A DNA stretch of 32,000 bases from an uncultured Pseudomonadota bacterium (GCA_963760995.1 CAVXFJ010000004.1:967128-999127); one strand, 5' to 3'; numbered from the stretch's first letter, positions 11,975 to 32,000 are shown. The notes: a model not told the origin generated them from the letters alone. Made by a program: numbers and translations.

Positions 11975-12901
11975 ATGTCACGCCATGAGCGAACTGCCTC
12001 AGGTGCCGACCAGTTGCGCGACACCGGTCTTGGCCCTGTCGGCGACCGGGCTTGGGGCACGCATATCTGTCTGTTCTACGAGACACCCCAAGACCTGTAC
12101 GATGTGCACGCCGAGTATTTTGGCGCCGGCTTGGCGAACGGGGAGTTCTGTATCTGGGCGTTATCGGACCCGATCAACCGGGATAATGCCATCGAGGCGT
12201 TGCGCAAATCCGTTCCAGATTTCGATAAGCATCTGCGAGACGGTCAAATCGAATTCATCCCAGGCTACCAATGGTATCTCCGCGGCGATGAATTCGACCC
12301 GCAACGGATCACCGGCGGCTGGCATGCCAAACTTGACGACGCGCTCGCTCGCGGCTTCGACGGCATGCGGGTCAGCGGCAATGCCTTCTGGTTCGAGACC
12401 GGCCTCTGGACAACGTTTCGTGAGTACGAGGCCGAACTCGACCGTTCGCTTGCCGGCCGGCGAATGATCGTACTTTGCACCTATTCGCTTGCGGCAAGCC
12501 GCGCCGTTGACGTGCTCGATGTGGCTCGCACGCACAATTTCTCGATTGCGAAACGAGACGGCCGATGGGAGTTCCTTGAAACGCCGGAGCTTGCCGAAGC
12601 AAGGCGCGAGATCGGGAGGTTAAATGGCGCCATCGATATTCTCTCGAAACCGTTCCCCGGTAGTCGGCGCCTGACCCATCGAGAGCAGGTTGTGCTAGCT
12701 CAAGTCGTCAAGGGCGCCTCGAGCAAAGAAGCGGGTCGCAATCTCAAAATAAGTCCGCGCACGGTCGAGTTTCATCGCAAGAATATCATGCGCAAGCTCG
12801 GTGCGCGGAATGTCGTCGACCTTCTAGGAATCGTACTTGGGAGTAGTCCCCGACAATACAGCCTATCCAAGTCCCCCATAGTCGGTGAGCCTCAGCAATA
12901 G
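11975..12901 (+). CDS. MEDS-domain / LuxR-family HTH transcriptional regulator
   Basis: The N-terminus HICLFYETPQDLYDVHAEYFGAGLANGEFCIWAL resembles the MEDS sensory domain. The C-terminus LTHREQVVLAQVVKGASSKEAGRNLKISPRTVEFHRKNIMRKLG is a LuxR/GerE HTH. Confidence 0.8.
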   Translation: MSRHERTASGADQLRDTGLGPVGDRAWGTHICLFYETPQDLYDVHAEYFGAGLANGEFCIWALSDPINRDNAIEALRKSVPDFDKHLRDGQIEFIPGYQWYLRGDEFDPQRITGGWHAKLDDALARGFDGMRVSGNAFWFETGLWTTFREYEAELDRSLAGRRMIVLCTYSLAASRAVDVLDVARTHNFSIAKRDGRWEFLETPELAEARREIGRLNGAIDILSKPFPGSRRLTHREQVVLAQVVKGASSKEAGRNLKISPRTVEFHRKNIMRKLGARNVVDLLGIVLGSSPRQYSLSKSPIVGEPQQ

Positions 12902-15692: not shown

Positions 15693-16657
15693 TGGGAGCG
15701 GTGAAAGAGCTCCTCTTCGCCCAAAGCGACCCGAGCATCCACGGCCCGAGAGCTATCCCGCGAATTGATGAAAGCCGCGATCTCACATGGGCCGAGATTA
15801 ATGATGCTACCCGAGGGGCAGTTGGCAAATTTTCTCTGCCCTGCCCATTTTGCGGTCCAGAAATGGCACACTCCTCACGATTTAGAATTGAGCGTCCCAC
15901 CCTCGGTTACGCGCGATGGTATTGTTTCTATTGCGGCGAAAGTGGGTCGCTGAGGCGCAATAGTCCTACCGATCCGAAAAACGAGGCGGCTGCCCGTCGT
16001 GCAGCGGTCGCACGCGAACAAGAGCAGAAAGCTGAAAGGACCGCGCGAGCACTTGCGCTATGGGAAGCTGCCAGCACGATAGTCGGTTCACTGGTAGTCG
16101 ACTATCTGCAGGCGCGCGCCATCCGCGACCTGCCGCCAGATGTCGACGCTGTGCTCCGGTATCACCCTTCTTGCTCCTTTGGGCGCGACGGACCGCGCCC
16201 ATGCATGCTCGCGCTCATGCGCGACGTGCGGACTGATAAGCCGCGCGCCGTGCACAGGACGTGGATCGGTAGTGGCGGCCGAGCACTTGGACGTATGGCG
16301 CTCGGCCCGATTGCCCGCGCTGCCGTGAAGCTGTGGCCGACTGGTGGGCCGAGCCTCGTCGTTGGCGAGGGCATTGAGACTGTGCTCGCCGCCGCTCTCC
16401 ATCTGGAGCGCGCTGACGGCGAGGCGCTGAGGCCTGCATGGGCGCTGACAGTCGCCAACAACTTGACCAGATTCCCGCTAATCCGAGGCGTCCAGCGCCT
16501 CGTAATCCTGACCGACAATGACGTCAGCGGTGTCGGTCAGCGCGCCGCTGAGACGTGCTCTAGCCGTTGGTGCGACGCCGGCCGTCAAACTGTGAAATTG
16601 ATACCGAACCGGCTTGGGGCTGACTTCAATGATGTATTGAAGGAAGCAGCCCTATGA
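15689..16657 (+). CDS. Zinc-ribbon plus Toprim-domain protein (primase-like module)
   Basis: CPFCGPE...WYCFYCGESG forms a four-Cys zinc ribbon. LVVGEGIETVLAA...LVILTDNDVSGVGQRAAE is a Toprim E...DxD pattern. Both the start and the stop overlap neighbouring genes. Confidence 0.7.
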   Translation: MMGAVKELLFAQSDPSIHGPRAIPRIDESRDLTWAEINDATRGAVGKFSLPCPFCGPEMAHSSRFRIERPTLGYARWYCFYCGESGSLRRNSPTDPKNEAAARRAAVAREQEQKAERTARALALWEAASTIVGSLVVDYLQARAIRDLPPDVDAVLRYHPSCSFGRDGPRPCMLALMRDVRTDKPRAVHRTWIGSGGRALGRMALGPIARAAVKLWPTGGPSLVVGEGIETVLAAALHLERADGEALRPAWALTVANNLTRFPLIRGVQRLVILTDNDVSGVGQRAAETCSSRWCDAGRQTVKLIPNRLGADFNDVLKEAAL

Positions 16658-18087
16658 GCCTCGCTGGCGACTTTTCTGAGCAATCCGGCTCTCCATCTCC
16701 CATTTTCTCGGAGAGCGACTTAGCTGATCGCTTTGCTGAGCGACATAAGGCAGAGCTCCGCTATGTCGCGGAATGGAGTCAGTGGTTTTGCTACAACGGC
16801 AAATATTGGAAGAAGGAAAAAACGCTGCTGGCGTTCGATCTCGTGCGTGCTCTCTGCCGCGAGATCGCTCGCGGATGTAACAAATCCGCTGAAGCCAAGG
16901 CGCTGACGAGCGGGAAAACGATCGCAGCTATCGAAAAGATCGCGAAAGCAGATCGGCGTCTCGCTGCCACCATCGACCAGTGGGATCGCGACCCGTGGCT
17001 ATTGAATACACCTGCCGGTGTCGTCGATCTACGGAATGGAAAGATGCGGGAGCATGACCCTGAAGACTACTTGACGAAGATCACCGCCGTGGCGCCCAAA
17101 GGCAAGTGCGCCTTGTGGAAGAGCCATTTGGCTGTTGTCATGGCCGACGACGCAGAGCTGATTGGATTTCTGCAGCGCGCGCTGGGCTATTCCCTGACCG
17201 GCATCACCCGGGAACACGCGCTCTTTTTCGGCCACGGCACCGGGGCTAATGGCAAGGGCACCACGTTTGAGACCGTCGCACACGTGCTTGGCGACTATGC
17301 TCGGACGGCGCCAATGGAAGTGTTCCAGTATTCGTCCATCGACCGGCACCCAACCGAACTCGCCATGTTGCAGGGTGCGCGCTTCGTGACGGCCAGCGAG
17401 ACCGAGGAAGGCCGGGGTTGGGCTGAGAGTAGAATCAAGACGCTCACAGGTGGCGACCGCATCTCTGCAAGGTTTATGCGACAGGATTTTTTCGAGTACT
17501 TGCCCCAATTTAAACTTTGGCTGACGGGAAACCATAAGCCGTCGATTCGCTCGGTCGATGAAGCAATCCGCCGACGCTTCAATCTGATCCCGTTTGCCGT
17601 GACGATTCCGCCCGATAAGCGCGATAAGGAACTTGTGTCGAAGCTGAAGGAGGAGAGCGCAGGGATTTTGGCCTGGATGATCCAGGGCTGCTTGCTTTGG
17701 CAGCAGAACGGCCTCAACCCGCCGCTGGCAGTGAAGCGGGCAACCGATGAATACTTGGCAGCCGAGGACGCGCTGCGCCTGTGGTTTGAGGAGTGCTGCG
17801 TCGTCGACGCGGCAGAGCCGGGTACGTTTACGAGCGAACTATATGAAAGCTGGAAACTCTGGGCCGAAAAGAATGGAGAATACCCGCGCAGCCTGAAAAA
17901 GTTCTCGTTGTCACTAGACGCCAAGAGCAAGGAGCTCGGGATCGAGAAGACGAATGACCTCCGGCGGAAGGGAAACATTTCTGAGTATGTCTGCGGGAAG
18001 ATTGTCTGGAAGGCTGTCGAGAAGCACGGGCGCGGATTTACCGGTGTTCGCCTCAAGACTCATCAAGAAAGCGAACCTCACATATGA
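16654..18087 (+). CDS. P4-family phage/plasmid primase C-terminal region / D5-like SF3 helicase
   Basis: 477 aa with WLLNTPAGVVDLRNG, a Walker A in FFGHGTGANGKGT, then ASETEEG and IPF...IPPDKRDKEL..KLKEE..GILAWMIQGCLLWQQNGL. This is typical of P4 alpha / D5 C-terminal proteins. Confidence 0.85.
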   Translation: MSLAGDFSEQSGSPSPIFSESDLADRFAERHKAELRYVAEWSQWFCYNGKYWKKEKTLLAFDLVRALCREIARGCNKSAEAKALTSGKTIAAIEKIAKADRRLAATIDQWDRDPWLLNTPAGVVDLRNGKMREHDPEDYLTKITAVAPKGKCALWKSHLAVVMADDAELIGFLQRALGYSLTGITREHALFFGHGTGANGKGTTFETVAHVLGDYARTAPMEVFQYSSIDRHPTELAMLQGARFVTASETEEGRGWAESRIKTLTGGDRISARFMRQDFFEYLPQFKLWLTGNHKPSIRSVDEAIRRRFNLIPFAVTIPPDKRDKELVSKLKEESAGILAWMIQGCLLWQQNGLNPPLAVKRATDEYLAAEDALRLWFEECCVVDAAEPGTFTSELYESWKLWAEKNGEYPRSLKKFSLSLDAKSKELGIEKTNDLRRKGNISEYVCGKIVWKAVEKHGRGFTGVRLKTHQESEPHI

Positions 18088-19957: not shown

Positions 19958-20160
19958 AGAATGGCCGACGAAGGCCATTGATGCTTTAGGTCGGAAATGA
20001 CCCACAACGGACGTAGTGTGTGTGTCGCGGCAATCGAAGCAAGGTCGATTTGCGTGGGGGTCGGGGGGCTTTATGCAGCGCGTTCAATCAATGATCAAAC
20101 CCAGTTCGGCAGCGCCGCCGTAAACTCAGATTGACCCATTACGGACTTTTCTATCCAATG

Positions 20161-20183
20161 AAAAGCGGCCCCGAAGGACCGCT
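20161..20183 (-). terminator. Rho-independent terminator of the 20207-20821 gene
   Basis: The reverse strand reads GCGGTCC-TTCG-GGGCCGC followed by TTTT. Confidence 0.7.
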
Positions 20184-20206
20184 GATCTCATACATCGATT
20201 GCCCGC

Positions 20207-20821
20207 TTAGGCTGGTTTGGGTGCTTTGCGCTGCCTAGGCCGACTAATCATTGTAAAAAACCCAAGTCCGCCTGCCAGGAGTGGCAATGTGGTAGGCAGT
20301 GGGACGGGCGAGACAGACCCAACCCTGATGGTAATGTTGTCGCCTGTCACGACGTTGTAGATTGTGTCGCCCAGATTGAGACCAAGACTGGAAAGTGTCG
20401 CACCGACGAACGTCATCGACCCATTCAGCGCCGAACCAAAAATATAGTCCGAAGACAGGAAGATGTGAGGTCCTGCCTTAGCAAAAAAATCACCAGACGA
20501 ACTCGTTGCAAATATGTTGCTAGTTGACCCATAGGGATCGGACGCGTTGGAAACGACGTTGTAATATCCGACCACGGATTGTGACGTGCCCAACGAGTTC
20601 CTAAAGAACCCTACCGTTGGCGAAATTTGTGGACCAAAGCTGAACGTAGGGGTGGTATAATCGATCGTTTCTCCAGACAAATCCATCGATCCGCTCAGGG
20701 TAGCGACAACGTCCCCGCCGGATTCCTGAAAGGCGATCAATACTGAAGCTTTCGCGGGAACAATCGCTAACATCGCCGATGCACAAAGGCCTGCGGCGAC
20801 CAATATTTTTCTAAACATCAT
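20207..20821 (-). CDS. Secreted protein with a VPLPA/PEP-CTERM-type C-terminal sorting signal
   Basis: Signal peptide MMFRKILVAAGLCASAMLAIVPAKA. The C-terminus is VSPVPLPTTLPLLAGGLGFFTMISRPRQRK, i.e. motif, TM helix and basic tail. GGAGGA lies 6 nt before the ATG at 20821. Confidence 0.75.
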   Translation of the reverse strand: MMFRKILVAAGLCASAMLAIVPAKASVLIAFQESGGDVVATLSGSMDLSGETIDYTTPTFSFGPQISPTVGFFRNSLGTSQSVVGYYNVVSNASDPYGSTSNIFATSSSGDFFAKAGPHIFLSSDYIFGSALNGSMTFVGATLSSLGLNLGDTIYNVVTGDNITIRVGSVSPVPLPTTLPLLAGGLGFFTMISRPRQRKAPKPA

Positions 20822-21362
20822 TTGAAATCCTCCCATTGTTTCGGTCCCACCCCGCTACTCGAGTACAAGTTTCAGTATGCCATCTGAATTTTCCAAAGAG
20901 TGAGCTGAACTTAAATCCACCCGATGCCTAGCTTGTTGAGATGGGATTGCCGCCATGAACGACCATATCGCCGCAAAATTCGACTTGGCATAAAATCGGC
21001 GTGAATAAGAGCGGCCTACGCGGACATGTCGTGTGTGGCGCCGGTAAAGATGTCGCAGCTCAAGCCTACATTCAATACTACTTCTAAGTGACTGGTGGGG
21101 ATTCCGCTTAATGTCCTACCGGTGCCGGTGATTATGACCGCGAGCGGAGCCGTTACGTCGTCAAACTTTGACAACCGAGCAACGGTCTACTTTTACACGC
21201 CGTATGGTAGCACACTCCTGCGACATAAATTCTTCGCAAATAAACTAAATCCTGCCGACTTGGTATAGACGGCGCCGCCATTAGCGGGCATGATGGCAAA
21301 GTGGCATCGTGTGCGTGATTGCGTCAGCCGTTGACGCTTTGACGCGTTGTTTGGGGCGTAAA

Positions 21363-22004
21363 ATGAAAACTAATTTGTTTAGTATTATTGCGTTGCTGTT
21401 TGTGTTCGGGATTGCCGAAAAAGCAAGAGCAAGCCCAATTGACATGAGCTACACTGTGACCGGTTCTCCGGGAAGTTGGGTCTATGATTTTTCTTTCACC
21501 AATAACCTTGGGAGCCCCAGTGAGATTTACTCTGTTGGGGTAAGGCTAAACAGCCCTGATTCTAGTAGTATCGTCTACCCAATCGGTTGGTTTGCAGGAA
21601 GTCCCGGAGGGTGGAATTGGTTTGGCTACGGTGGGTCAAATACCAATTACAATGCTCTCTGGGTTACCTGTACTACGGGAAGTTGCCCTTCAAATTGGCC
21701 AGTAAGTCAACCCGCAATTGGGTCTGGCCAAACAATGAGCGGCTTTCAAGTGATGGATACTGCTCAAAGTACATTAACCAGTGTGAGTTGGTATGCCGTG
21801 ACCTACGGTTACTACGCACCCCCGCAAACCGGATGCAGCTTTATATGCCAAGCCCCTTATAGCAATCCGGGATTTGAAGGTTTGGCGACACTTGCGACTT
21901 CCGAAACGCCTCTCCCGTCTGCGCTCCCGCTTTTCGCGTCTGGGCTTGGTGCTTTGGGTTTTCTCGGCTGGCGCAGGAAGCGGAAAACTCAGCTAGCAGC
22001 CTGA
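21363..22004 (+). CDS. Secreted VPLPA/PEP-CTERM-type protein, paralog 1
   Basis: Signal peptide MKTNLFSIIALLFVFGIAEKARA. The C-terminus is TPLPSALPLFASGLGALGFLGWRRKRK. Collinear with the 22405-23070 product. Confidence 0.8.
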   Translation: MKTNLFSIIALLFVFGIAEKARASPIDMSYTVTGSPGSWVYDFSFTNNLGSPSEIYSVGVRLNSPDSSSIVYPIGWFAGSPGGWNWFGYGGSNTNYNALWVTCTTGSCPSNWPVSQPAIGSGQTMSGFQVMDTAQSTLTSVSWYAVTYGYYAPPQTGCSFICQAPYSNPGFEGLATLATSETPLPSALPLFASGLGALGFLGWRRKRKTQLAA

Positions 22005-22028
22005 TCACTAACTTTTTTGTGGCACGGA

Positions 22029-22059
22029 GGGACCGCCGCAGCTGGCGGTCTCTCTTTTT
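22029..22059 (+). terminator. Rho-independent terminator
   Basis: GACCGCC-gcagct-GGCGGTC followed by TCTCTTTTT. Confidence 0.7.
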
Positions 22060-22404
22060 GCGATGTGTGCTGCAAGTGCGTCGGTCGCGAATGGCCCATC
22101 GCGATATTCCGCTGTGATGCAAAGCCATGTCCGGTCTTGGGGCAACAGCCGACATAGGGCGGCGCCGTGCGCTCAATGGGTCGGTAGCGTTTGACCCATG
22201 TGCCACATTAATCAAGACACTGGCCCTAAAACAGTTTAACGTGCGAGCGCGGTCAGGAAAATTGACCGAGAGTTGCATAAAAAATGGCGACTTGCCGAAG
22301 TCCCCGTTCCTTCAATTGGCAGCCGAGTGCCCATCGGCAGGCTTGACGACGCCTTAGCTCTTGCGCGTTCGCCATGGTGGCGCCGCCATCCGAAGGGGAC
22401 GACA

Positions 22405-23070
22405 ATGAAACCATTTATGAAGCTGACGCTGAAAGCGAAAATATTCGGTTTTATTGCGCTGCTGTTTCTGTTGGGGAATTCCGAAGCAACGCAAGCAAAC
22501 CCGGTCGACGTGAGTTACACGGTTTCCGGTTCTGCGGGAAACTGGGTCTATGATTTTTCAGTCACCAACAACCTTGGAAGCGGTACCGCGATTTACTATG
22601 TTGGGGCCAGCCTGCCTAATTCTGTTACAGGCAGCATTGTTTATCCTACCGGCTGGTATGCACCAGCCGTTACCAGCCAGAATTGGGGCGGTAATCCCTA
22701 CAATGGGTCAGGTACTGAGTACAATGATCTCTGGATTACCTGCTCCTCCTCGGCCGTTTGCAATAACCAATATGGAATATTCAATGGCCAAACCTTGAGC
22801 GGCTTTCAAATATCGGATTCTGGTTTGACCGCGCTGACGAGTGTAAGTTGGTTTGCAGTGGATGCCGGTTACTACGGTCCACCACAAACGGGTTGCAGCT
22901 TTATCTGTGGCGCTCCATATACCAATCCCGGGTTTGAAGGTTTAGCGATGGCCGCGATCTCAGGAACCCCGCTCCCTGCCGCTCTCCCGCTGTTCGCGTC
23001 AGGCTTGGGCACATTGGGGCTGCTTGGCTGGCGCAGGAAGCGGAAGAAGGACGCTGCGCCCGCAGCCTGA
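22405..23070 (+). CDS. Secreted VPLPA/PEP-CTERM-type protein, paralog 2
   Basis: Signal peptide ...IFGFIALLFLLGNSEATQA. The C-terminus is TPLPAALPLFASGLGTLGLLGWRRKRK. The ATG at 22405 is preceded by AAGGGGA. Confidence 0.8.
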   Translation: MKPFMKLTLKAKIFGFIALLFLLGNSEATQANPVDVSYTVSGSAGNWVYDFSVTNNLGSGTAIYYVGASLPNSVTGSIVYPTGWYAPAVTSQNWGGNPYNGSGTEYNDLWITCSSSAVCNNQYGIFNGQTLSGFQISDSGLTALTSVSWFAVDAGYYGPPQTGCSFICGAPYTNPGFEGLAMAAISGTPLPAALPLFASGLGTLGLLGWRRKRKKDAAPAA

Positions 23071-23097
23071 CCCAAATATTTTGTTTGTGGCACCGAA

Positions 23098-23126
23098 GGA
23101 CCGCCGCCTTGGCGGTTCTTTTTTGT
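23098..23126 (+). terminator. Rho-independent terminator, paralogous to 22029-22059
   Basis: GGACCGCC-gcctt-GGCGGTTC followed by TTTTTTG. Confidence 0.7.
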
Positions 23127-23149
23127 GCGCGGAAACGAATGACGCGATA

Positions 23150-23209
23150 TGGCCCATCCCAGCCATTCGCTAGTCGTCGGCAATTAGGCAATAGCGGAAG
23201 TGCGGCCTC
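23150..23209. repeat. About 60-nt intergenic repeat, copy 1
   Basis: TGGCCCATCCCAGCCATTCGCTAGTCGTCGGCAATTAGGCAATAGCGGAAGTGCGGCCTC. By eye most positions match 24421-24480. Confidence 0.7.
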
Positions 23210-23383
23210 ACCCTCAACAATGGACTGTGCTCGCGGTGCACTCCTGAACATCATTTAATTCTCTGCTCGAAGCAAAGGCCGAAGCTGCTCGGCTCGACTT
23301 TCACGCGCAAAAGAACTTTGTATTGCGTTTTCTTCAATGACCATTTCAAAACCCACGAGTAGAAACCTTCACGACAGCACAAA

Positions 23384-23788
23384 TCATAACGGTACTGGTA
23401 TCATTATATACCGCAGATGCGACTTTGGCGGCTCACAGGCAATGCCATCATTGTCCGCGTCATTGTGGCTCCAATATCCTGGTTGACCTCGTCGCGCAGG
23501 TGACAAACCCATAGCCTCAACCGCATTGCAGCTGGGAAACGAAATAAGGTGCTTCAAAGTTAGACCTACTGGCCACGGACTGGCTAGCAAGTACCAAACA
23601 AACGCAAAGCTACATATTGCAGTTACAACTGGAAACCACGACGCATAAATGAACTTTTTTAATCGGGACAATTGGTCCTGTCGGCGTGATACGCTGCTGA
23701 AGCGCCGTTTTAGCTCGCGCAGTCTTTTATCCGCGCCTGTAATATCGTTGTGAACAATGTTAGGTAGAAGCGATTTTTTTCCCGCCAT
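23384..23788 (-). CDS. Membrane-anchored protein with a C-terminal Excalibur-like calcium-binding motif
   Basis: TM helix WFPVVTAICSFAFVWYLLA. The C-terminal NDADNDGIACEP matches the DxDxDGxxCE Excalibur signature. Confidence 0.65.
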   Translation of the reverse strand: MAGKKSLLPNIVHNDITGADKRLRELKRRFSSVSRRQDQLSRLKKFIYASWFPVVTAICSFAFVWYLLASPWPVGLTLKHLISFPSCNAVEAMGLSPARRGQPGYWSHNDADNDGIACEPPKSHLRYIMIPVPL

Positions 23789-23845
23789 GGCTACCCCTCA
23801 CAGACATTTAACGCCAAAGCGCACACTGGAGCAGTCCGCACCGGC

Positions 23846-24238
23846 TTAATGTGTGAAAGGTCTCACGCTTTGGGCCGCAATTTCGTTATAGAACGTGTAG
23901 GACCCGACGTGCCGGACCTCCTGAAATACACCTTTCACCTCCAGTGGGTCGCCATTCATGATATTGGGGTGACCCCAAGTAAATACCTTTACGCCACCCC
24001 CTGCTGTGTCCCGAAGCTGGAAAGTTGAGTAATCATTGCCAGCTCGGGAGGTTGTTTCCCGGACCTCATCAGCAGTTCCATGGACAGAGACACTCTTTCC
24101 ATCGAACTGAGAGGGATTTGAAGCTATAGCGGCGACACTAGCGGGAAGAGTAGCAGGTTCGGCTGAACAGCCGACAGGGATGAGCAGCAGAAATGCATTC
24201 GCTAAGAGCCATGGACCTTTAGCTTTTATTTGTGTCAC
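23846..24238 (-). CDS. Putative secreted protein or lipoprotein (130 aa)
   Basis: GTG start with GGAG upstream. Signal-like N-terminus WLLANAFLLLIPVGCSAEP with a possible non-canonical lipobox. No family recognised. Confidence 0.5.
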   Translation of the reverse strand: MTQIKAKGPWLLANAFLLLIPVGCSAEPATLPASVAAIASNPSQFDGKSVSVHGTADEVRETTSRAGNDYSTFQLRDTAGGGVKVFTWGHPNIMNGDPLEVKGVFQEVRHVGSYTFYNEIAAQSVRPFTH

Positions 24239-24420
24239 CGTGCTCCCTCTCGCCTAACCTGTACATTGTCTTTACTAACATTCGATCAGCATGCCTGATC
24301 TATATAAAAGTAGGCGACATACAATTCGATAAACAAATTGTTTAAAAGGCAAAGCTAATTCGAAGCGTAGCATTTGTTCTGTCTGTGCCCTTAAACGCAA
24401 GAACGTGGGGTTGATGGCAC

Positions 24421-24480
24421 TGGCCCATCACTGCTATTCGCTACGTCGTCGACAAATAGACAATAGCGGACATGCGGCCT
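24421..24480. repeat. About 60-nt intergenic repeat, copy 2
   Basis: TGGCCCATCACTGCTATTCGCTACGTCGTCGACAAATAGACAATAGCGGACATGCGGCCTC. Confidence 0.7.
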
Positions 24481-24500
24481 CGTCTTAAATCTGCTCTCTC

Positions 24501-24843
24501 TCAAATCGAGGGCCGTCTCGCCAATGTCAGTATTCGCGGCCTACCATATCCATTGCAACGTCGGCAGCACAGGTCGCGCAATGCGAGACGAATCAAAGTC
24601 GCGCGGCTTCACTCACAAATCCAAATCGACAACAGTCTCGCAAGTGTCGCAGGCGATGACTATCCAAGGATGCTTTGCATACTTTGACGTTTGATTTTGC
24701 GATGTTAATTTTTTGCCGACCATCGTGCCGATTATCTGCCGGTCTATCGCCGATGATTTACCGCGACAGTGCCTGTCGGAAACACCTAGACTTCCGTCAC
24801 TGATTAGGGAGAGCGTGCACGGCCTCTCAGCTTTATCAATCAC
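24501..24843 (-). pseudogene. Decayed paralog of the 26626-26976 zinc-ribbon gene (in-frame stop plus frameshift)
   Basis: The reverse strand reads KHPWIVIACDTCETVVDLDL*VKPRDFDSS. After a frameshift it continues ALRDLCCRRCNGYGRPRILTLARRPSI*. The intact copy reads RHPWLVIACEGCGMVTDMDLRVKPRDPEAS...ALRDFRCPRCNGHGRPRVTALARSASI*. Confidence 0.75.
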
Positions 24844-25613
24844 TGAAGCCCTGCATGGTGTAGTAGTTCTTCAATTGCTATTCTAAAATCAGATTGAACC
24901 CTCTCGATATCCTCGTGGCGGGCAATAAAGAAACGGCCATGCGCGGAGACATGTCCAAGGTCTTTTAATTTTGGAAGAGCTTTTTTTGTATTCCGTGACA
25001 ATGGTAACGCTTGTTCATTACACGCCAATTCAACTAGTTTTGTTAATTGGAAGTAATTGCCGTCGGCGCTCTTAATCTTGTGAGCGATACCTTTTGTTTC
25101 GAAAGCCTCGATTATGCCGATCTCCAATAGCCGTCGCATCATGACCATGCTCGCATCGCGCCAACCATGTTGATAACAGCCGTTCAGTTGGCGACCGATC
25201 GCGATAATATAAGGACGCTTAAAATCATCGAGAATTGAGGGTGGAATGAAATTTATAGAGGATGTTGACGTTTGTGTCGGCGCGGCCGTTTTGCGGGAAA
25301 GTCGCCTCAGCGCGGATGTTAACTCGCGTTGAGCACGCAACCGATCTCCCGACGAAGCATTGTGATGGAAAACATTGGCCAGCAATTCGGCAAAGGCCGT
25401 AGCATCGCCTGTCGAGAGAGTTGGCAGCTGCTCGAACGCTTCCGTCGCTTGTGATTTCAGGTCGGCAAATTTATTTCCGTAATGGTTGTCTCCAGACAGC
25501 GATTTTCGATTTCGTCGCGCTTTTTTAGCAACTAACAGCGCCTGTTGAGTGAGATCTTGTAGCAAGGATACTGGCGTCACGTGGTCATCGTCGCTCAACC
25601 TGCGAGTAACCAT
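24840..25613 (-). CDS. Hypothetical protein (257 aa); the C-terminal half resembles DUF4145/HEPN-like domains (weak call)
   Basis: AT-rich ORF. GCYQHGWRDASMVMMRRLLEIGIIEAF ... LKDLGHVSAHGRFFIARHEDIE resembles the helical DUF4145 pattern, which normally ends in a GN..aH-type motif. The start lies 3 nt after the upstream gene's stop. Confidence 0.5.
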   Translation of the reverse strand: MVTRRLSDDDHVTPVSLLQDLTQQALLVAKKARRNRKSLSGDNHYGNKFADLKSQATEAFEQLPTLSTGDATAFAELLANVFHHNASSGDRLRAQRELTSALRRLSRKTAAPTQTSTSSINFIPPSILDDFKRPYIIAIGRQLNGCYQHGWRDASMVMMRRLLEIGIIEAFETKGIAHKIKSADGNYFQLTKLVELACNEQALPLSRNTKKALPKLKDLGHVSAHGRFFIARHEDIERVQSDFRIAIEELLHHAGLQ

Positions 25614-25616
25614 GTG

Positions 25617-26036
25617 TCACCAAGGAGAATACAGATAGGTATTGTTTTCGCCTTTGTGTCGGCGCAATACCTTGGCTTTGCATAGACGCATCAGCGGCGT
25701 GCTCAGCCCCGTAATTGCTATATGGTGCCCACGATTTCCGAGCTCTGCCTTAACTTCAGATATCGTTTTAGGCCTTTTGAAAAAGCCATCACCGAGCAAT
25801 TCTTGTAAATACTGGGTTGGCCCACCGCGCGCCGCTCCTCGCAAATTCTCGCGCCTCTTCTTAGCCGACACCTTTCGGCGTTTGGCCGGGGCATTGCTTT
25901 CTTCATTGTCCTGCTTGGTGCTCAGAAGGTCATCCAAGACTTTCTGGAAAGCGATTTGTTTCAACGAAGGGTCTGAAACCGAGTTCACCGCCTTCTCGGC
26001 CTGTTTCACCAACTGCTCATAATTGTCTTTAGCCAT
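25617..26036 (-). CDS. Hypothetical protein (139 aa) with a Lys/Arg-rich linker and a possible C-terminal winged-helix domain
   Basis: The internal ATG (complement of 26034-26036), giving MAKDNYEQLVKQAEK, is preferred over the track start at 26129. No family recognised. Confidence 0.5.
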   Translation of the reverse strand: MAKDNYEQLVKQAEKAVNSVSDPSLKQIAFQKVLDDLLSTKQDNEESNAPAKRRKVSAKKRRENLRGAARGGPTQYLQELLGDGFFKRPKTISEVKAELGNRGHHIAITGLSTPLMRLCKAKVLRRHKGENNTYLYSPW

Positions 26037-26295
26037 GGATTTAGCCCTATTGATTCTTCTACCAATGATAGCGCAGCCCCTCTTGCCAATCGAATCTCCG
26101 CAAATGAGGTTAAGCCCGGACGGCCTCACACTCGCATTCCGGCGGTCGGCTAGCGCCGAACTCGAACCCCTGTTTTCGCCGTGAGAGCGCCCAATAATTT
26201 TCCAATTACGTCGACTGAAAAGTAAGATTCACGGCGGGGTCTAATCGGGGTCGGCCGATTTAGCGGCCTCTAAGTCATTGAAATCACACAGGAGG

Positions 26296-26310: not shown

Positions 26311-26625
26311 GAGCCACAACCATCGACTATCCGATTGCTAAGCCAACTATTTTGTCTGCGGCAGCCCCTCTTGTACCCCCATATGTACCCCAACCGCTCG
26401 GCTCAGGGATTTTTTGGGCATTGATCAAGCAGAAGTCCTGATGATCCGGCCTAACGGGCTCGCCAAGCGAATACGAAGCTCGGTGCGAGCGCGACTTTTG
26501 TAATGTATTTTTCCGTCCGAAAGAATTCGTTGCTGAGATCCCTCCCCGACCGCCTCGCTCACCACTGCCAACGTTTGACGGCCATGCCGCCCCGCCCTAG
26601 CGTCGGCTCGGAGCCGGTCGAGGCC

Positions 26626-26976
26626 ATGGGCTATAACGCGCGAAACGACGAGGTAGGCGACAACGTCTCCCGCATGCGGGCCCAGTGGAGGGCCGAGTGG
26701 GACGCTTTGGCGACCGTGCGTCGCTTCAACGCGAGCCTTTCCGGAACCGGGTACGCGTGGTTCTGGCCGAAGATCGCCGCTGCGGTCGCCGCTAGGCATC
26801 CGTGGCTCGTGATCGCATGCGAGGGGTGCGGCATGGTGACCGACATGGACCTGCGCGTGAAGCCGCGGGACCCCGAGGCCTCGGTCCGCGTCGCGCTGCG
26901 CGACTTTCGGTGCCCGCGCTGCAACGGGCACGGCCGGCCGCGCGTCACGGCGCTCGCACGAAGCGCGTCGATCTGA
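26626..26976 (+). CDS. Small conserved hypothetical protein with a four-Cys zinc ribbon (CEGC...CPRC)
   Basis: A decayed paralog at 24501-24843 argues that this strand and frame is the real gene. The probable start is the MGYNARNDE ATG at 26626 rather than 26503. Confidence 0.65.
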   Translation: MGYNARNDEVGDNVSRMRAQWRAEWDALATVRRFNASLSGTGYAWFWPKIAAAVAARHPWLVIACEGCGMVTDMDLRVKPRDPEASVRVALRDFRCPRCNGHGRPRVTALARSASI

Positions 26977-27841
26977 GTGGAAGCCGGTTTGCGACCGAGC
27001 GAGCCCGTGCATCTTCGCTTCTTGACGAGCCGGCCGGGTCATCGGCCTGTACCAGGATGCTCGAGCCCTCCTGTCAGTCCGGCGGGAAAACCAAAAGGCA
27101 CATCCGGCTGACGCCCATTGTTCGGCACCAAAGAAGCGGTTGGCTAAGGTGCCGAACGGCCATTTCCATGGAACGAGAATCCACTCGAGCTCGTTCAATA
27201 ACAAGATTATCAAGAACCCGATGATCGCGATGACGAAAAGCCCGACATATATGCGCTCTCGAGCCTAACTGTGCCGGAGGCTAGTACAGGCTGAACCCTA
27301 GCGTCGGGGCCACAAGCAAATCCGTGGCCGCGACTTGAATTCGCATGCATTTGGCCCCCGTCGACTGAGCGACCCTAAAGCCGAGTTTGAACCATTTGCT
27401 TCTCGCGGGCGAGAAGGCGGTGTCGCGCCGGTGCGAAACCGGTTCATATTATTATTGAGTCTTATTATAGCTTTCAGCAGTCGGTTCTCACACCACAGGC
27501 TGCTGCCGAGTTAGGAGCGGACGTTAGGCGGAGGCCGTGGCTGGACGGCTCGTAATCCATAATTCGCAAAGCAAGACTGCAGTTGCGCAGCAGCACGAGG
27601 CGACCCAGAGAGGCTAGCCGTGCATGACGATTGATCAGGGTCAATGCCGGGCTGGCTCGAACTAATTAGTCTAACAAATTAGTTTTCGGAAGACGCCTAT
27701 CATGACGCTTTGAGCAGAGTAACGGCACGCAGAACATCCTTCATAGCTGCCATCATTCTGATGCCGTCGCTAGCCGCGCGGATTGCAACCGCGAAACGGA
27801 AAGCTTTACGAGACGCTGATCGCAATTTTTATTGGCCCCCC

Positions 27842-28963
27842 ATGCGCCTGAAGAAGCTCGCGACCATAGTCGGAGTCCTGATCATCGATATAGCGGTCGC
27901 GGTCGTGGCAATCGAGGCGTTAGCTTGGCTTTTGGGCTACAACCAAAGCGCCGGCAAATATCCCCACGGCCCTCTCGTCTTCCTGAAGGGAAGAGGGACG
28001 GTGATCGAACGGCATGGCAATGCGTTCACCTACGCTCCACACATGCAAGGCCGCAACGTCAACATTCATTATTCGGATGCGGACTTCGAAATCGATTTCG
28101 ACTACAGATTTCCAACCAACAATCTAGGCTTGGTGCAGACAAACGACGTTGTACCGGACAAGAAGTCGCTGCTCGTCGTGGGCGATTCCTACACCGAGGG
28201 CGTGGGCTCGCCGCCCTGGTTCGCCAAGCTCGCGCCCACGATAGAGAAGCACGGTCTGCAGCCGATTAATGGGGGCTTGCGCGGGACCGGCTTTCACATG
28301 TGGTGGCAGCTCATCCAGCATCTGCAGCGGCAAGGCCTGCAGATCGCCAAGCTGGTCGTCATCTTCACGTCTCCAGACTTCACCGCGCCACCCATGTCGT
28401 TTCCGGACGCTTATTTGAAGTGCCTTTCGGCGCCTGTTCTCAAAAATTGTAACCTCGAGGACTATTTCTTTATGCCGCTTCCGGGTCGTGACCAGTTACC
28501 GTTTTGGGTCGACCGGATCCGAAAAGCGCGAGCCGCCTGGGCCCTCGACGAGCAGACATGGATCGAGCAAAGATTAAAGGCGGCGATGCCAACGAGCTAT
28601 CGCATCTACGACTTCTTACGGCAAGAGATCGTGCCACCATCCGAGCCGACCGACGAAGAGACTGACGATGAAGCGTCGTCGCGCGCTGCCTTGCAGGCCA
28701 TGGCAAAGCGGTTCGGCATCGAGAATATTCTGTTCATTCATGTACCGATCAAAAACGAGCGAAGTCCGGAGCCGATCGGCTTGCGGGCTCGCTCCGCGAT
28801 CGCCGCGATCGGCGGCCAGTTTGTCGATGGTTTCCTGCGCTGCGGGCTTTCTCTCTCCGACTATCACGAATTCGACGGGCATCCGAACGAGGCCGGTTAT
28901 CGAAAGCTCACCATTTGTGTGACGCAGGCCATCGACCGTTTCGCGGCAAACCGGATTCACTGA
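27842..28963 (+). CDS. Membrane-anchored SGNH/GDSL-family hydrolase
   Basis: N-terminal TM helix LATIVGVLIIDIAVAVVAIEALAWLL. Block I is LLVVGDSYTEGVGS and block V is FDGHPNEAGY (DxxH). The ATG at 27842 is preferred over the TTG at 27710. Confidence 0.7.
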   Translation: MRLKKLATIVGVLIIDIAVAVVAIEALAWLLGYNQSAGKYPHGPLVFLKGRGTVIERHGNAFTYAPHMQGRNVNIHYSDADFEIDFDYRFPTNNLGLVQTNDVVPDKKSLLVVGDSYTEGVGSPPWFAKLAPTIEKHGLQPINGGLRGTGFHMWWQLIQHLQRQGLQIAKLVVIFTSPDFTAPPMSFPDAYLKCLSAPVLKNCNLEDYFFMPLPGRDQLPFWVDRIRKARAAWALDEQTWIEQRLKAAMPTSYRIYDFLRQEIVPPSEPTDEETDDEASSRAALQAMAKRFGIENILFIHVPIKNERSPEPIGLRARSAIAAIGGQFVDGFLRCGLSLSDYHEFDGHPNEAGYRKLTICVTQAIDRFAANRIH

Positions 28964-29086
28964 ACTCACGGCCTGCAACCGTCAGATGTGTTTAGGCGGG
29001 GACTGTCGACGGCGACGTCGTTGACGCAGATCAATGCCAACATTGCCGAATTTGGAGTTACTTATCGCCTTTCGATGGAGGACGAG

Positions 29087-29227
29087 ATGAGGACCAGAAA
29101 GACTGCTACAAAGCGTGGTTACGTTCGTCCGCAAATGCGCACCGTGGTCACCCCGAAGGAAATCCGGGACATCGACCAGCCGTGTGCCTTCGTCGAGCGG
29201 AAGAAGAAGAGGCGCGGCGGAAAATAA
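29087..29227 (+). CDS. Candidate small peptide or RiPP precursor (46 aa, MRTRKTATKRGYVRPQMRTVVTPKEIRDIDQPCAFVERKKKRRGGK)
   Basis: ATG at 29087 preceded by GGAGGA with a 5-nt spacer. The ORF lies immediately upstream of the radical SAM gene. A GC hairpin at 29238-29260 follows it. The peptide has a single Cys. Whether it is really coding is unproven. Confidence 0.4.
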   Translation: MRTRKTATKRGYVRPQMRTVVTPKEIRDIDQPCAFVERKKKRRGGK

Positions 29228-29237
29228 AACCCATGGT

Positions 29238-29260
29238 GCGGGCCGGCGATGTCGGCCCGC
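29238..29260 (+). promoter_or_regulatory. Stable GC hairpin between the small ORF and the radical SAM gene (possible partial terminator or attenuator)
   Basis: GCGGGCCG (29238-29245), loop GCGATGT, CGGCCCGC (29253-29260). It is followed by a C/T-rich tract rather than a clean T-run. Confidence 0.45.
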
Positions 29261-29304
29261 CCCCTTCTTCCCGGCATCATCCGCCATCCACCGAAGCTTG
29301 CGCC

Positions 29305-30924
29305 ATGAACGAGCGGGCAACGGTTTCTTCTCCCCACCTTCGCGATTTTTGCGTTTCGGGCCGTCACTACCTCGTAAACGGCTCGACCGGCCAGGCTTTT
29401 GAGGTCGACGACGGCGACGCCCGGCAATCCAAGTCAGCCATATCGTTCGGCGACCTGCGACAATTTGGCCATCTCGATGCCGCGGACAGCCGGTCGCTCG
29501 ATGCCAACCCGCCGCCTACCGGGATCGGCTCCGTCCTGTTGAACGTGACGCACCACTGCAATCTGGCTTGCGCCTATTGCATCATGGCGATGCCCGATTT
29601 GCAGCTGGCCTATCGCGACGAAAAGGGATCGCTGAACGAAAGCACCGGCAAGGCCAGCATCGATTTCCTGGCCAAGGCCGGCTATCGCGACGTCGTCAGC
29701 CTCACTTTCTTTGGCGGCGAGCCGCTGCTGAAATTCGATCTGATCAAAAAGCTCGTGGAATATGCCGAGAGCGAATATCCTGGGCGGTTCAGCTATCAGC
29801 TCATCACCAATGGCTGCCTGATGCGGCCGGAGATGTACGACTTCTTCCGCACCTACCGATTTTCGCTTCTCTGGAGTCTTGACGGCGAACCTGAGGTGCA
29901 CGATCGGCTGCGGCGCTTCAAGAAATCCGGCGACGGGAGCGTCTTCGCCCAGTCGTTCGCGGCGCTGCAGGATTTTCGCGCCGCGTGCCCGGAATGCCCC
30001 GTCGGCGTGAATGTCACCTATTTCAAGCAAACCGTGGAGCTGCCAGCGGCTCTGCATTTCTTCCACAGCCACGGCATCGAGGCAATTCGCATGGATCGCG
30101 GCCTGGTGCCGCGCGACAGCCCGCACGCAGTGGGCGTCGAGGAGACGGCGCGAGTCAAGGCGCAGCTCTCACAGGTCGCCGAAGAGTACCTCGATATGTT
30201 GTTGCGCGGCGAAGTCTTCAGCCTCAATCCCTTCGTCAACTACATGCGGATCATTTCGAAGCGCCTGCCGCGCTCGCGCGCCTGCAACAGCGGCTTGGAC
30301 TATGTGACCATTGCTGCCACCGGCGACATCTACTCCTGCTACAAGCTGCTTGGGCTCGCAGATTGCCGACTGGGCGACGTCTATCAGGGCTACGAGCGCG
30401 AGACGTCGATGCGGCTGTGGGAACGGCTGGATGTGGCCGAACGTCCGGGCTGTAGCAGCTGTTGGGCGCGATTCATCTGCGCCGGCGGCTGCGCCGCCGA
30501 CAACCGTCACCTCAACAATTCCTATGTCGCGCCGGCGCGGGAAAACTGCCTCATCTTCCTGCACGCGATCGAGCTTTCGATCCACATCTACTTCTCGCTA
30601 CTTGAGCGGGCCCCGCAGACCCTGAAGACCTTGCTCGCAGACGAGCATCTGCTCGACGAGGACCGTCCGCTGCGCCGCGGCGACTTTGGGCGCGCCGACA
30701 ACGACGGCAACTTCATCAATAAAGAAACCGGCGCAGTCTATCAGCTCAACGAAGCGGCGGCGCGGATTTACGCTTTATGCGACGGCGAGCATTCACTGGC
30801 CGACATCGCGTCGGCCGTTGCGGAGGACTACGACATCCCGCTGGGTCTGGCCTTGCTGGATTGCCGCGAGCAGATTTTCCGCATGGCCAAGACCGGGCTC
30901 GTCACCGTTCCGGCCGGATTGTAG
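29305..30924 (+). CDS. Radical SAM / SPASM-domain peptide-modifying enzyme with a fused C-terminal PqqD-like (RRE) domain
   Basis: CX3CX2C motif CNLACAYC at 29557-29580. Auxiliary-cluster Cys region CNSGLDYVTIAATGDIYSCYKL...RPGCSSCWARFICAGGCAADN. The C-terminal roughly 70 aa, GAVYQLNEAAARIYALCDGEHSLADIASAVAEDYDIPLGLALLDCREQIFRMAKTGLV, looks like PqqD. The ATG at 29305 is preferred over 29182. Confidence 0.85.
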   Translation: MNERATVSSPHLRDFCVSGRHYLVNGSTGQAFEVDDGDARQSKSAISFGDLRQFGHLDAADSRSLDANPPPTGIGSVLLNVTHHCNLACAYCIMAMPDLQLAYRDEKGSLNESTGKASIDFLAKAGYRDVVSLTFFGGEPLLKFDLIKKLVEYAESEYPGRFSYQLITNGCLMRPEMYDFFRTYRFSLLWSLDGEPEVHDRLRRFKKSGDGSVFAQSFAALQDFRAACPECPVGVNVTYFKQTVELPAALHFFHSHGIEAIRMDRGLVPRDSPHAVGVEETARVKAQLSQVAEEYLDMLLRGEVFSLNPFVNYMRIISKRLPRSRACNSGLDYVTIAATGDIYSCYKLLGLADCRLGDVYQGYERETSMRLWERLDVAERPGCSSCWARFICAGGCAADNRHLNNSYVAPARENCLIFLHAIELSIHIYFSLLERAPQTLKTLLADEHLLDEDRPLRRGDFGRADNDGNFINKETGAVYQLNEAAARIYALCDGEHSLADIASAVAEDYDIPLGLALLDCREQIFRMAKTGLVTVPAGL

Positions 30925-30951
30925 CGGGGGTCAATCCCAGGAGAGTCATCG

Positions 30952-31227
30952 ATGTCTCCACGCCGTCGACTTAAATCGTCTCTGCTGGTGACCGAAAAGA
31001 ACGAGCAACTCTTCGCGCTCGATACCGATAACGGGCGCGTGCACGAGCTCAATGTCACGGCCAAGGCCATTTTCGAGCTCTTTCGCGAGCCGTGCGAGGA
31101 AGAAGAAGCGGCCGCCGAATTCGCCCGCACCTTCGACGTTCCGTACGAGCAGGCGCTCGAGGACGTGCGCGACATGCTGGAGCGGTTCCGTAACAATGAC
31201 CTGCTCGAATTGAGCGCATTTGAATGA
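30952..31227 (+). CDS. Stand-alone PqqD-family (RiPP recognition element-like) protein
   Basis: 91 aa: EQLFALDTDNGRVHELNVTAKAIFELFREPCEEEEAAAEFARTFDVPYEQALEDVRDMLERFRNNDLL. AGGAGAG SD lies 7 nt upstream. Confidence 0.75.
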   Translation: MSPRRRLKSSLLVTEKNEQLFALDTDNGRVHELNVTAKAIFELFREPCEEEEAAAEFARTFDVPYEQALEDVRDMLERFRNNDLLELSAFE

Positions 31228-32000
31228 ATGGAGAATGCCTGACCATTCGCGTGGGCGACCAGACCTACGCACTGGAGAGCGCGGCGCCCGAAGACCTGGC
31301 TTATTTTGCGCGCGCCTATGCCGCCTGCCCTGGGAACCCCGCCGAGGTCACGGCCCGCTTTCTGCTCACGCACGTCGGAGCGCCATGGCAGGTGCATATC
31401 GGCGGCAAGATCTTCGCCGAGGGGCCGTTCGACCGGGTCGTGCGGCTGCTCGACTGGGAGTTGTCGCGGCGCGCTATCAAACAGGATTCGCCCTGTGCCG
31501 CATTCCACGCCGCTTGGATCGCGCGCGATCGGCAGGCGGCCATGCTTGCCGGCAAAGGTGGCGCTGGCAAGAGCCATCTTTGTCTGCAATTGGTGGACCA
31601 TGGTTTCGACTATGGTGCCGAGGATGTGACGTTCTGCAGCGGAAGCCGGCTGCTGCCGTTCCCGCGGGCTATCCAATTGCGCAAGAGCGACCCAATCCTC
31701 GAACGTATTGCGCCCGAGCGCCTTTTCGTCGGTTATGACGGCCGCATCTGCGTTGAGGTGCCGCGGCAAACAACTGCAATGGAAGCCGCCGCCGACAATC
31801 TGACGGTTATTTTTCTCGATCCCACGGCCACTACGAGCTCTGTGCAACCGCTGACCGCCTTCGAAGGTTTGCAGCGGCTGTTCGCGCTTTGCCACCGGCT
31901 GGACCGGGTCACCGCGCCCTTGTTCGACACGGTCGCGGGTCTTGCCGCGGCCGGCCGTATGTATGCCGTCCCGCAGCGCAACGCGGCGCATGCGATTCGA
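31224..32000 (+). CDS. HPr kinase/phosphorylase C-terminal-domain-like (HprK-related) P-loop kinase; 3' end beyond the window
   Basis: Not in the ORF track because no stop occurs before the edge. The ATG at 31224 overlaps the PqqD stop (ATGA). Hand translation gives MNGECLTIRVGDQTYALESAAP...AFHAAWIARDRQAAMLAGKGGAGKSHLCLQLVDHGFDYGAEDVTF..., open for 259 codons. It parallels the HprK pattern G.SG.GKSE.AL.L...GH.L.ADD. Confidence 0.75.
   Translation, partial: MNGECLTIRVGDQTYALESAAPEDLAYFARAYAACPGNPAEVTARFLLTHVGAPWQVHIGGKIFAEGPFDRVVRLLDWELSRRAIKQDSPCAAFHAAWIARDRQAAMLAGKGGAGKSHLCLQLVDHGFDYGAEDVTFCSGSRLLPFPRAIQLRKSDPILERIAPERLFVGYDGRICVEVPRQTTAMEAAADNLTVIFLDPTATTSSVQPLTAFEGLQRLFALCHRLDRVTAPLFDTVAGLAAAGRMYAVPQRNAAHAIR

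Follow-up and report, generated by a model that had tools for sequence, protein, structure and literature searches.

In ranthipeptide and SCIFF systems (CteB, PapB, and QhpD acting on QhpC), a precursor of approximately 45 aa that is highly conserved along its length is found beside a radical S-adenosylmethionine (rSAM)/SPASM enzyme bearing a recognition element (RRE) for peptides made on the ribosome and modified after translation (RiPPs). PapB, QhpD and CteB form non-alpha (beta or gamma) thioethers to Asp, Glu or Thr (PMC10114670), and NxxcB forms a beta-thioether from Cys to the residue at i-3, with Asp tolerated as the acceptor (PMC9389541). The leaders of lasso peptides carry a YxxPxL recognition motif, and B1 together with an HprK-type kinase phosphorylates linear lasso precursors (PMC10368454). 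A locus that resembles each of these systems in part was examined in a 32,000-nucleotide stretch of DNA from an uncultured Pseudomonadota bacterium (GCA_963760995.1, CAVXFJ010000004.1: 967128–999127), referred to here as the window. A small open reading frame (ORF) of 46 codons at 29087–29227 (+ strand, including the stop codon) is very probably translated into a peptide that serves as the precursor (substrate) in a conserved pathway of the RiPP type, as indicated by its 25 homologues, a coding type of substitution pattern and its position as the first gene of the cluster.

A word-indexed search of 5.8 billion proteins using the 79-aa form of the product as the query detected eight called small proteins that share the sequence YVRPxMRTVVTPKEIRDIDQPCAF and have variable ends, and gene callers do annotate homologues of the peptide in other assemblies. 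Pattern scans added three species-representative genomes, namely Desulfobulbus alkaliphilus DSM 24258, Blastochloris sulfoviridis DSM 729 and a Thermodesulfobacteriota metagenome-assembled genome (MAG), as well as five metagenome contigs containing a homologue; genomes and metagenomes contributed eleven loci beyond the called proteins. In a HMMER profile search of 1.84 billion representatives only nine further clusters were found at E≤1e-10 (approximately nine clusters at 50% identity), all of which included the motif, and the peptide family is therefore real but rare.

The 25 distinct homologues have the pattern Y-x-[RK]-P-x-[MIV]-x-T-x-x-T-P-x-E-I-R-D-[IL]-[DE]-Q-P-C-[AG]-F in common, which corresponds in the window peptide to a conserved central segment from Y12 to F35 (YVRPQMRTVVTPKEIRDIDQPCAF, 29120–29191, + strand, alignment A6). 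Residues Y12, P15, T19, T22, E25, D28, Q31, P32, C33 and F35 were invariant, while V20, P23, I26, R27, I29 and D30 were nearly so, position 30 being either D or E. The first part of the segment, Y-x-x-P-x-[MIV], was present in 25 of 25 sequences (Y-x-x-P-x-M, Y12–M17, at 29120–29137, + strand, in the window), and its likeness to the lasso YxxPxL suggests that it may be a recognition motif for an RRE. The only Cys in the window peptide lies in the sequence D30-Q31-P32-C33 (29174–29185, + strand), an [DE]-Q-P-C or ‘DxxC’ motif that, by analogy with NxxC, is the putative site of crosslinking by the rSAM enzyme. A single Cys was found in 22 of the 25 sequences and two were found in the other three (P0041, P0042 and P0045), where the second Cys is in the variable C-terminal tail (…GAGCDKKK, …GIGCEKKK and …DNNCT, respectively). 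The N-terminal residues, approximately 11 in number, are variable and Lys-rich, and the tail after C-[AG]-F ranges from 4 to 21 residues of any composition, being basic in the window, PGE-rich in Desulfobulbus and TIYTVYR in one of the other loci (L015).

When the 24-codon core was compared by codon position in 12 distinct DNA sequences, the third position was variable in 24 of 24 codons, the first in 10 and the second in 7. In the last 15 codons of the core the corresponding figures were 15, 4 and 2. The mean pairwise proportion of synonymous differences (pS) was 0.69 and that of nonsynonymous differences (pN) was 0.13. The variation at third positions and the values of pS and pN therefore indicate a translated gene under strong purifying selection, and exclude an element that acts only as RNA. 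The initial annotation had asked whether conservation might be seen only at the level of nucleotides or structure, and it was found at the level of amino acids, with no Rfam match at E≤1 across 26–32 kb of the window. The peptide was 71–96% identical in the core where the identity of the rSAM enzymes fell to about 40%, and it retained 13 or 14 of the 14 residues of TPKEIRDIDQPCAF at an rSAM identity of 37–45%. On the evidence of these comparisons, the 46-codon ORF is a genuine, strongly conserved coding gene.

The gene starts at the ATG at 29087–29089 and ends with a TAA whose last base is 29227, giving the 46-aa product MRTRKTATKRGYVRPQMRTVVTPKEIRDIDQPCAFVERKKKRRGGK. A strong Shine-Dalgarno sequence, GGAGGA, was read directly at 29077–29082 (+ strand) as had been reported, and the gap to the ATG is 4 nt (CGAG) rather than the 5 nt given originally, a trivial difference. 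A Shine-Dalgarno sequence of the AAGGAGG or GGAGGA type was located 4–9 nt 5′ of the aligned Met in 11 of 11 loci examined. The two alternative starts that had been put forward, a GTG at 28988 and an ATG at 29075, both exist, but the starts of the homologues align to the Met at 29087. These longer forms were rejected, as homologues do not conserve the extra N-terminal residues and the apparent conservation of an upstream ‘ED’ is due to the in-frame translation of the Shine-Dalgarno sequence itself. A recount of the composition gave the same figures as before, 16 Lys or Arg, 4 Asp or Glu and one Cys, for a net charge of +12. The basic charge had been described as atypical and as resembling that of nucleic-acid-binding or ribosomal proteins, and +12 is indeed the charge of the window copy, but it sits in the variable tails and in the family the net charge ranges from +2 to +12. 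In the alignment, the extreme positive charge is a property of lineage-specific tails and not of the family or its functional core.

None of the three forms of the product (46, 50 and 79 aa) matched a called gene in the contig's public gene set when looked up by exact sequence. Pfam and NCBIfam scans with the peptide returned no match, and no sigma-70-like promoter was found in a scan of positions 28600–29600. The peptide motif and the cluster had no match in the open-access literature searched.

The peptide gene was the first gene, directly 5′ of the rSAM gene, in eight loci, and none of the loci recovered had it apart from the rSAM cluster. In the loci with enough flanking sequence the order of genes was peptide, stem-loop, rSAM/SPASM-PqqD, (methyltransferase 1, GAF protein), stand-alone PqqD, HprK/ScmC-like protein, NodS-like methyltransferase 2, (ABC-2 exporter) and HExxH protein, where brackets mark genes that are missing from some clusters. 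The same order, with the conserved small ORF upstream of a homologous rSAM gene that the initial annotation had called for, was seen in L002, L004, L005, L006, L007, L013/L014 and L015/L016. Taxonomically, the clusters belong to Blastochloris in the Alphaproteobacteria, to Desulfobulbus and Desulfobacca-like genomes in the Desulfobacterota, and to several MAGs. In an all-against-all comparison of every ORF of 18–120 aa in eight loci, the peptide ORF was the only small ORF conserved in all, and the other recurrent small ‘ORFs’ were antisense or off-frame shadows of large genes. A rival conserved precursor gene further downstream, which had been raised as a possibility, was looked for, and no other small ORF was conserved in the complete clusters. 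The conserved position, the conservation of the amino acid sequence and the lack of another small ORF support the earlier interpretation as a precursor peptide, and two of the features expected of a RiPP precursor, a conserved small ORF beside modifying enzymes and a PqqD-like RRE encoded in the cluster, were found.

The three genes downstream of the peptide gene were as first described: an rSAM/SPASM gene at 29305–30924, a PqqD gene at 30952–31227 and a kinase-like gene from 31224. Methyltransferase 1 and the GAF protein are missing from the window (30924–30952; compare L002 12001–13315), L001 and L015/L016, and are therefore accessory rather than core. L001 is a Logan contig near-identical to the window, and look-ups with the PqqD and kinase-like proteins of the window matched only a 2.9-kb Logan contig. 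The exporter, present in most clusters, consists of an ATP-binding cassette (ABC) ATPase and two ABC2_membrane_6 permeases; L015 is without the transporter. The last gene encodes a protein of 380–418 aa with weak similarity to M1/M61 peptidases, and the HExxH sequence was kept in six loci. The Desulfobacca-like cluster (L013/L014) alone has an extra 131-aa ORF with no Pfam match (11749–12144), placed after the rSAM gene and before methyltransferase 1. The 417-aa gene upstream of the peptide gene in the window (27710–28963) has a weak match to GDSL/SGNH esterases below the cut-off and is not conserved beside the cluster at other loci; the peptide gene is therefore the 5′ boundary of the cluster.

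The rSAM/SPASM enzyme (29305–30924, + strand; Pfam Radical_SAM and PqqD) is 539 aa long; a small beta-sheet domain forms its N-terminus and a PqqD/RRE domain its C-terminus. The CX3CX2C motif (C85, C89 and C92) and seven SPASM Cys (C327, C345, C383, C386, C392, C396 and C415) were invariant in 17 sequences. A further residue, C492 (at about 30778–30780, inside the C-terminal PqqD domain), was likewise invariant in these 17 orthologues and is separate from the 10 Cys that bind clusters. A score of 49.9 with the SPASM model TIGR04085 (cut-off 27) places the enzyme in the rSAM/SPASM maturase superfamily. Its best NCBIfam matches were all below the cut-off, with 191.7 against 425 for the SCIFF maturase, 181.4 against 340 for PapB and 175 against 453 for QhpD, and by these scores it is related to the SCIFF, PapB and QhpD maturase families without being a member of them. 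Among structures in the PDB, CteB (5wgg) was matched at 6e-43 by sequence and was also the top Foldseek match (E 8e-28, template-modelling score 0.79). In the AlphaFold2 model, which had a mean predicted local distance difference test score (pLDDT) of 86, the N-terminal domain is a three-stranded sheet with two small helices and the C-terminal domain is a canonical beta3-alpha3 PqqD domain.

The stand-alone protein (30952–31227, + strand) is a lasso-B1-like PqqD-family RRE of 91 aa (Pfam PqqD, 2e-12). Its profile matched the lasso RREs TfuB1 (6jx3) and TbiB1 better (6e-9 and 7e-4, respectively) than PqqD itself, and its best NCBIfam match was lasso_PqqD_Strm at 2e-10, with a score of 40.7 against a cut-off of 70. 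Each cluster thus includes three RRE-type domains, the N-terminal beta-sheet and C-terminal PqqD domains of the rSAM enzyme and the stand-alone PqqD, and those of the PqqD type would be expected to bind the leader of the precursor. The substrate role of the peptide is proposed because of its genomic context and these three RRE/PqqD-type peptide-binding domains.

The HprK-related P-loop kinase-like gene (31224–32000, + strand; NCBIfam HprK_rel_A 5e-10, below the cut-off) is cut by the end of the window, the full-length protein being 267 aa (P0048). In Foldseek searches its AlphaFold2 model (pLDDT 93) matched phosphoenolpyruvate carboxykinase (PEPCK) and HprK/P folds with E values of 3e-6 to 1e-4, and its profile matched HPr kinase 3tqf at 4e-5. 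The Walker A motif GxxGxGKS was invariant (G110, G112, G115, K116 and S117). As modelled, the protein has an HPr kinase/PEPCK-like P-loop fold, and kinase activity is predicted. The stop codon of the PqqD gene and the start codon of the kinase-like gene overlap as ATGA (31224–31227); the same 4-nt overlap was found in L001 and L002, and an 8-nt overlap in L015. The overlap suggests translational coupling of the RRE–kinase pair.

The spacer between the peptide and rSAM genes includes a GC-rich stem-loop with no U-run (29235–29262, + strand), beginning 8 nt past the stop codon. The 8-bp GC hairpin that had been noted at 29238–29260 is real and is the centre of a stem of 10–12 bp, the arms of the inverted repeat (29235–29245 and 29253–29263) being 91% complementary. 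The predicted folding energy was −23.7 kcal/mol (z = −2.35), a value reached by only 1 of 200 dinucleotide shuffles. The stem is followed by CCTTCTTCCC, with the tail CCUUCUUCCC. A terminator scan of the + strand did not call the window stem, and its interpretation as a canonical intrinsic terminator was rejected as there is no U-run after it. A strong stem-loop (−22 to −40 kcal/mol) was present in the peptide–rSAM spacer of all nine loci examined, with stems resembling the window stem in sequence in L004 and L007. In L013 and L015 the stem is followed by a U-run, as in an intrinsic terminator. For a fixed segment of approximately 145 nt, the folding energy was no better than that of shuffles in L002, L004 and L005. 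Post-precursor stem-loops set the ratio of precursor to enzyme in other RiPP operons, and by analogy the stem-loop here may be a conserved attenuator or stabiliser with the same effect. In the minimum free energy fold of 29225–29310, CAUGGUGCGGGCCGG (29232–29246) pairs with the region of the rSAM start codon (GCGCCAUG), an arrangement (29232–29307) that replaces the simple hairpin. In this model, the alternative pairing around the rSAM start could occlude the initiation of rSAM translation.

Compared with the described systems, the locus is closest to the ranthipeptide and SCIFF type in the length and conservation of the peptide and in the RRE-bearing rSAM/SPASM enzyme next to it, and the Cys is near Asp or Glu as in the substrates of PapB and QhpD. 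However, the peptide has one Cys rather than the six of the Cys-rich SCIFF core, and did not match any precursor model. The rSAM enzyme of the window, unlike those of the SCIFF and PapB systems, has an extra C-terminal PqqD domain, and clusters of this type supplement the SCIFF/ranthipeptide arrangement with an RRE of the lasso type, a kinase of the HprK fold, a GAF protein, an HExxH peptidase and one or two methyltransferases. Extrapolating from the characterized enzymes, a thioether to a non-alpha carbon is predicted in the window peptide. The NxxC RaS-RiPPs of streptococci (NxxcA/NxxcB) have a single thioether from Cys to i-3, which resembles what is predicted for the invariant [DE]-Q-P-C found here, but NxxcB was not among the best NCBIfam matches and there are differences in taxa, leader and accessory enzymes.

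The phosphorylated lasso peptides of the paeninodin type (BsfA/BsfB1/BsfK) are similar in their stand-alone B1-type PqqD, in an HprK-family kinase that acts on a linear precursor and in a leader with Y-x-x-P-x-hydrophobic. However, position −2 of the lasso register is not a Thr here, and an rSAM enzyme is present instead. Neither a lasso cyclase (Asn-synthetase-like C) nor a B2 transglutaminase-type protease was found among the called genes and Pfam matches of the complete clusters L002, L004, L013 and L015, and membership of the lasso peptides was rejected on this basis. The combination of a PqqD-family chaperone and an HprK-related P-loop protein is also found in the ‘HPr-rel-A system’ of Haft (TIGR04352/TIGR04353) and in SynChlorMet (ScmC, ScmD and the rSAM enzymes ScmE and ScmF), the latter also including rSAM/SPASM enzymes. 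The matches to these models were weak and far under the curated cut-offs, the scores with TIGR04352, TIGR04353 and TIGR04249 being 38.9 against 200, 22.6 against 35 and 18.3 (range 18–23) against 125, respectively, with similar values in L002, and no open-access paper on HPr-rel-A or SynChlorMet was found.

The PqqA/PqqD/PqqE and MftA/MftB/MftC systems, which make peptide-derived cofactors, are similar in that an invariant small peptide is encoded together with an rSAM/SPASM enzyme and a PqqD-type RRE, and in that their clusters also include genes for a peptidase and a methyltransferase. Unlike these, the rSAM enzyme is nearer to the thioether-forming enzymes than to PqqE or MftC, an exporter is present, and the peptide has neither an E-x3-Y nor a C-terminal VY motif. 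The peptide did not match PqqA or MftA, and the rSAM enzyme scored 54 against a cut-off of 265 for mycofact_rSAM. By these profile comparisons, the system works like a rSAM RiPP of the ranthipeptide/SCIFF type with a lasso-style RRE and kinase as accessories, and is outside SCIFF, PapB, QhpD, lasso, PQQ, mycofactocin, HPr-rel-A and SynChlorMet as delimited by their defining models.

On these comparisons, the following mechanism can be proposed. Transcription would start upstream of the peptide gene. By attenuating read-through or stabilising a short transcript, the stem-loop that follows the stop codon would lead to an excess of precursor over the enzymes. The RRE domains would bind Y-x-x-P-x-[MIV] and the beta-prone RTVVT stretch (Y12–T22). 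The conserved Y-x-x-P-x-[MIV] is consistent with the lasso YxxPxL and therefore fits a B1-like RRE. The CteB/PapB/QhpD-like rSAM/SPASM enzyme would then make one thioether ring from the sole invariant Cys33, the likeliest acceptor being the side-chain carbon of D/E30 (a DxxC ring, as in NxxC) or, alternatively, D28. By analogy, a thioether from C33 to D/E30 or D28 is the most likely product of the rSAM enzyme, the ring to D/E30 being favoured because NxxcB links Cys to i-3 and PapB, QhpD and CteB make beta and gamma thioethers. The HprK-fold kinase coupled to PqqD might phosphorylate an invariant hydroxyl (T19, T22 or Y12) and the NodS-like methyltransferase might add methyl groups, with a second methyltransferase and the GAF protein available in most clusters, though not in that of the window. 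The peptide would thus be modified and its leader removed, for which the HExxH (M1/M61-like) peptidase is the conserved candidate. Cleavage by this peptidase would take off the Lys-rich, variable N-terminus, with the ABC-2 transporter exporting the product.

Several points weigh against the assignment of the peptide as an rSAM-modified RiPP precursor or against parts of this scheme. The gene is absent from the public annotation of the contig, and we infer production and modification of the peptide from comparative genomics. The chemistry is extrapolated from enzymes with only 22–24% identity (CteB), and the rSAM enzyme scored far below the cut-off of every named maturase. rSAM/SPASM enzymes of the same clan also make C–C or C–O links, or epimerise their substrates. 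In the lasso system, the YxxPxL residues are dispensable for phosphorylation (PMC10368454). The Thr at −2 of lasso leaders is also unmatched in the YxxPx[MIV] register, where R27 occupies this position. Contrary to the usual RiPP pattern, it is the C-terminal tail that varies here and not the presumed ‘core’, so that the boundaries of leader and core in the peptide are uncertain. The window hairpin has no U-run and its role is hypothetical.

Other explanations for the small ORF were also considered. The region could be non-coding, either as a chance ORF or as an RNA element such as a leader or attenuator of the rSAM operon, and both the lack of a called gene in this contig and the structured spacer directly 3′ would agree with this. 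However, every third codon position is variable while 10 residues are invariant in 25 sequences, pS greatly exceeds pN, the start codon and Shine-Dalgarno sequence are conserved, there is no Rfam match at E≤1 and homologues are called in other assemblies, which together make this explanation extremely improbable. It is also very unlikely that the product is a small basic nucleic-acid-binding, ribosome-associated or regulatory protein that merely adjoins the rSAM operon. The net charge of +12 and the Lys/Arg-rich termini of the window copy are atypical of known precursors, but the basic residues are in the unconserved tails, orthologues reach down to +2 with Pro/Gly/Glu-rich or hydrophobic tails, and the conserved part (EIRDIDQPCAF) is acidic or neutral. 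As the charge lies in the unconserved tails, a nucleic-acid-binding basic protein was rejected. The constant association of the gene with the rSAM cluster in the recovered loci, and the presence in the cluster of three RRE-type domains with no other candidate substrate, also argue against it.

A somewhat better case can be made for a precursor of a small peptide-derived cofactor or signal, cut from EIRDIDQPCAF following the logic of PqqA and MftA, rather than an exported modified peptide antibiotic. The central segment is near-invariant across phyla with enzymes down to about 40% identity, which is the pattern of PqqA, MftA and SCIFF and unlike that of bacteriocins in an arms race. The pairing of rSAM/SPASM with PqqD is the architecture of the PQQ and mycofactocin systems, and, like mycofactocin clusters, the clusters here include a peptidase and methyltransferases. 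Against this, most clusters have a dedicated ABC-2 exporter, no partner dehydrogenase or other cofactor-using enzyme was conserved nearby in the L002, L004, L013 and L015 loci, the family is very rare, with about nine clusters in 1.84 billion representatives, and the scores with the PQQ and mycofactocin rSAM models are far below the cut-off. A cofactor or signal precursor of this kind is thus considered unlikely.

The assignment as a RiPP precursor can be extended, tentatively and with rather more doubt than confidence, to the proposal that the peptide and its cluster represent an undescribed RiPP class. The class would be defined by a near-invariant 24-residue core with a single Cys, an rSAM/SPASM-RRE fusion, a lasso-type RRE with an HprK-fold kinase, methyltransferases and an M1-like peptidase, and its product would be phosphorylated, methylated and cyclised by a thioether. 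The invariance across phyla would then reflect a conserved target or a signalling or cofactor role, and not arms-race diversification.

Some features were observed in the remainder of the window. A phage-type integrase gene (13191–14468) is followed by a D5_N/DUF5906 primase-helicase-like gene (16654–18087), after which the GC content falls from about 0.60 to 0.48–0.54 (20000–26000). An integrated mobile element is probably present a few kb upstream of the peptide cluster. No tRNA gene was found in a scan of the window. The low-GC stretch includes genes for two PEP-CTERM-tagged proteins and a protein with an Excalibur calcium-binding domain (21309–22004, 22273–23070 and 23384–23788, the last on the − strand). 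A 157-aa ORF at 26503–26976 (+ strand) has a Cys-rich C-terminus (CxxC…CxxC) and no family match, and a decayed, inverted partial copy of it, with 61–63% aa identity, a stop codon and a frameshift, was found at 24504–24678 (− strand). The ORF and its decayed copy flank two orphan ORFs (24840–25613 and 25617–26129, both − strand).

A practical point is that the peptide gene is missing from the public gene calls of this contig. The peptide has few candidate modification sites (the Cys, two Thr and a Tyr that are invariant, and three acidic positions), and the cluster is present in two cultured strains (B. sulfoviridis DSM 729 and D. alkaliphilus DSM 24258), so the chemistry is directly testable. 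If the proposed reading is true, the locus would provide a new precursor family and a new combination of enzymes for rSAM-dependent RiPPs, in which an rSAM/SPASM enzyme with a C-terminal RRE is joined by methyltransferases and by an enzyme of the HPr kinase fold that is coupled to a lasso-type RRE. Being almost unchanged across phyla, the peptide poses a question that SCIFF peptides also pose, namely what conserved function they serve. The widespread gene pairs of PqqD and an HprK-related kinase would also gain a concrete substrate outside the lasso peptides.

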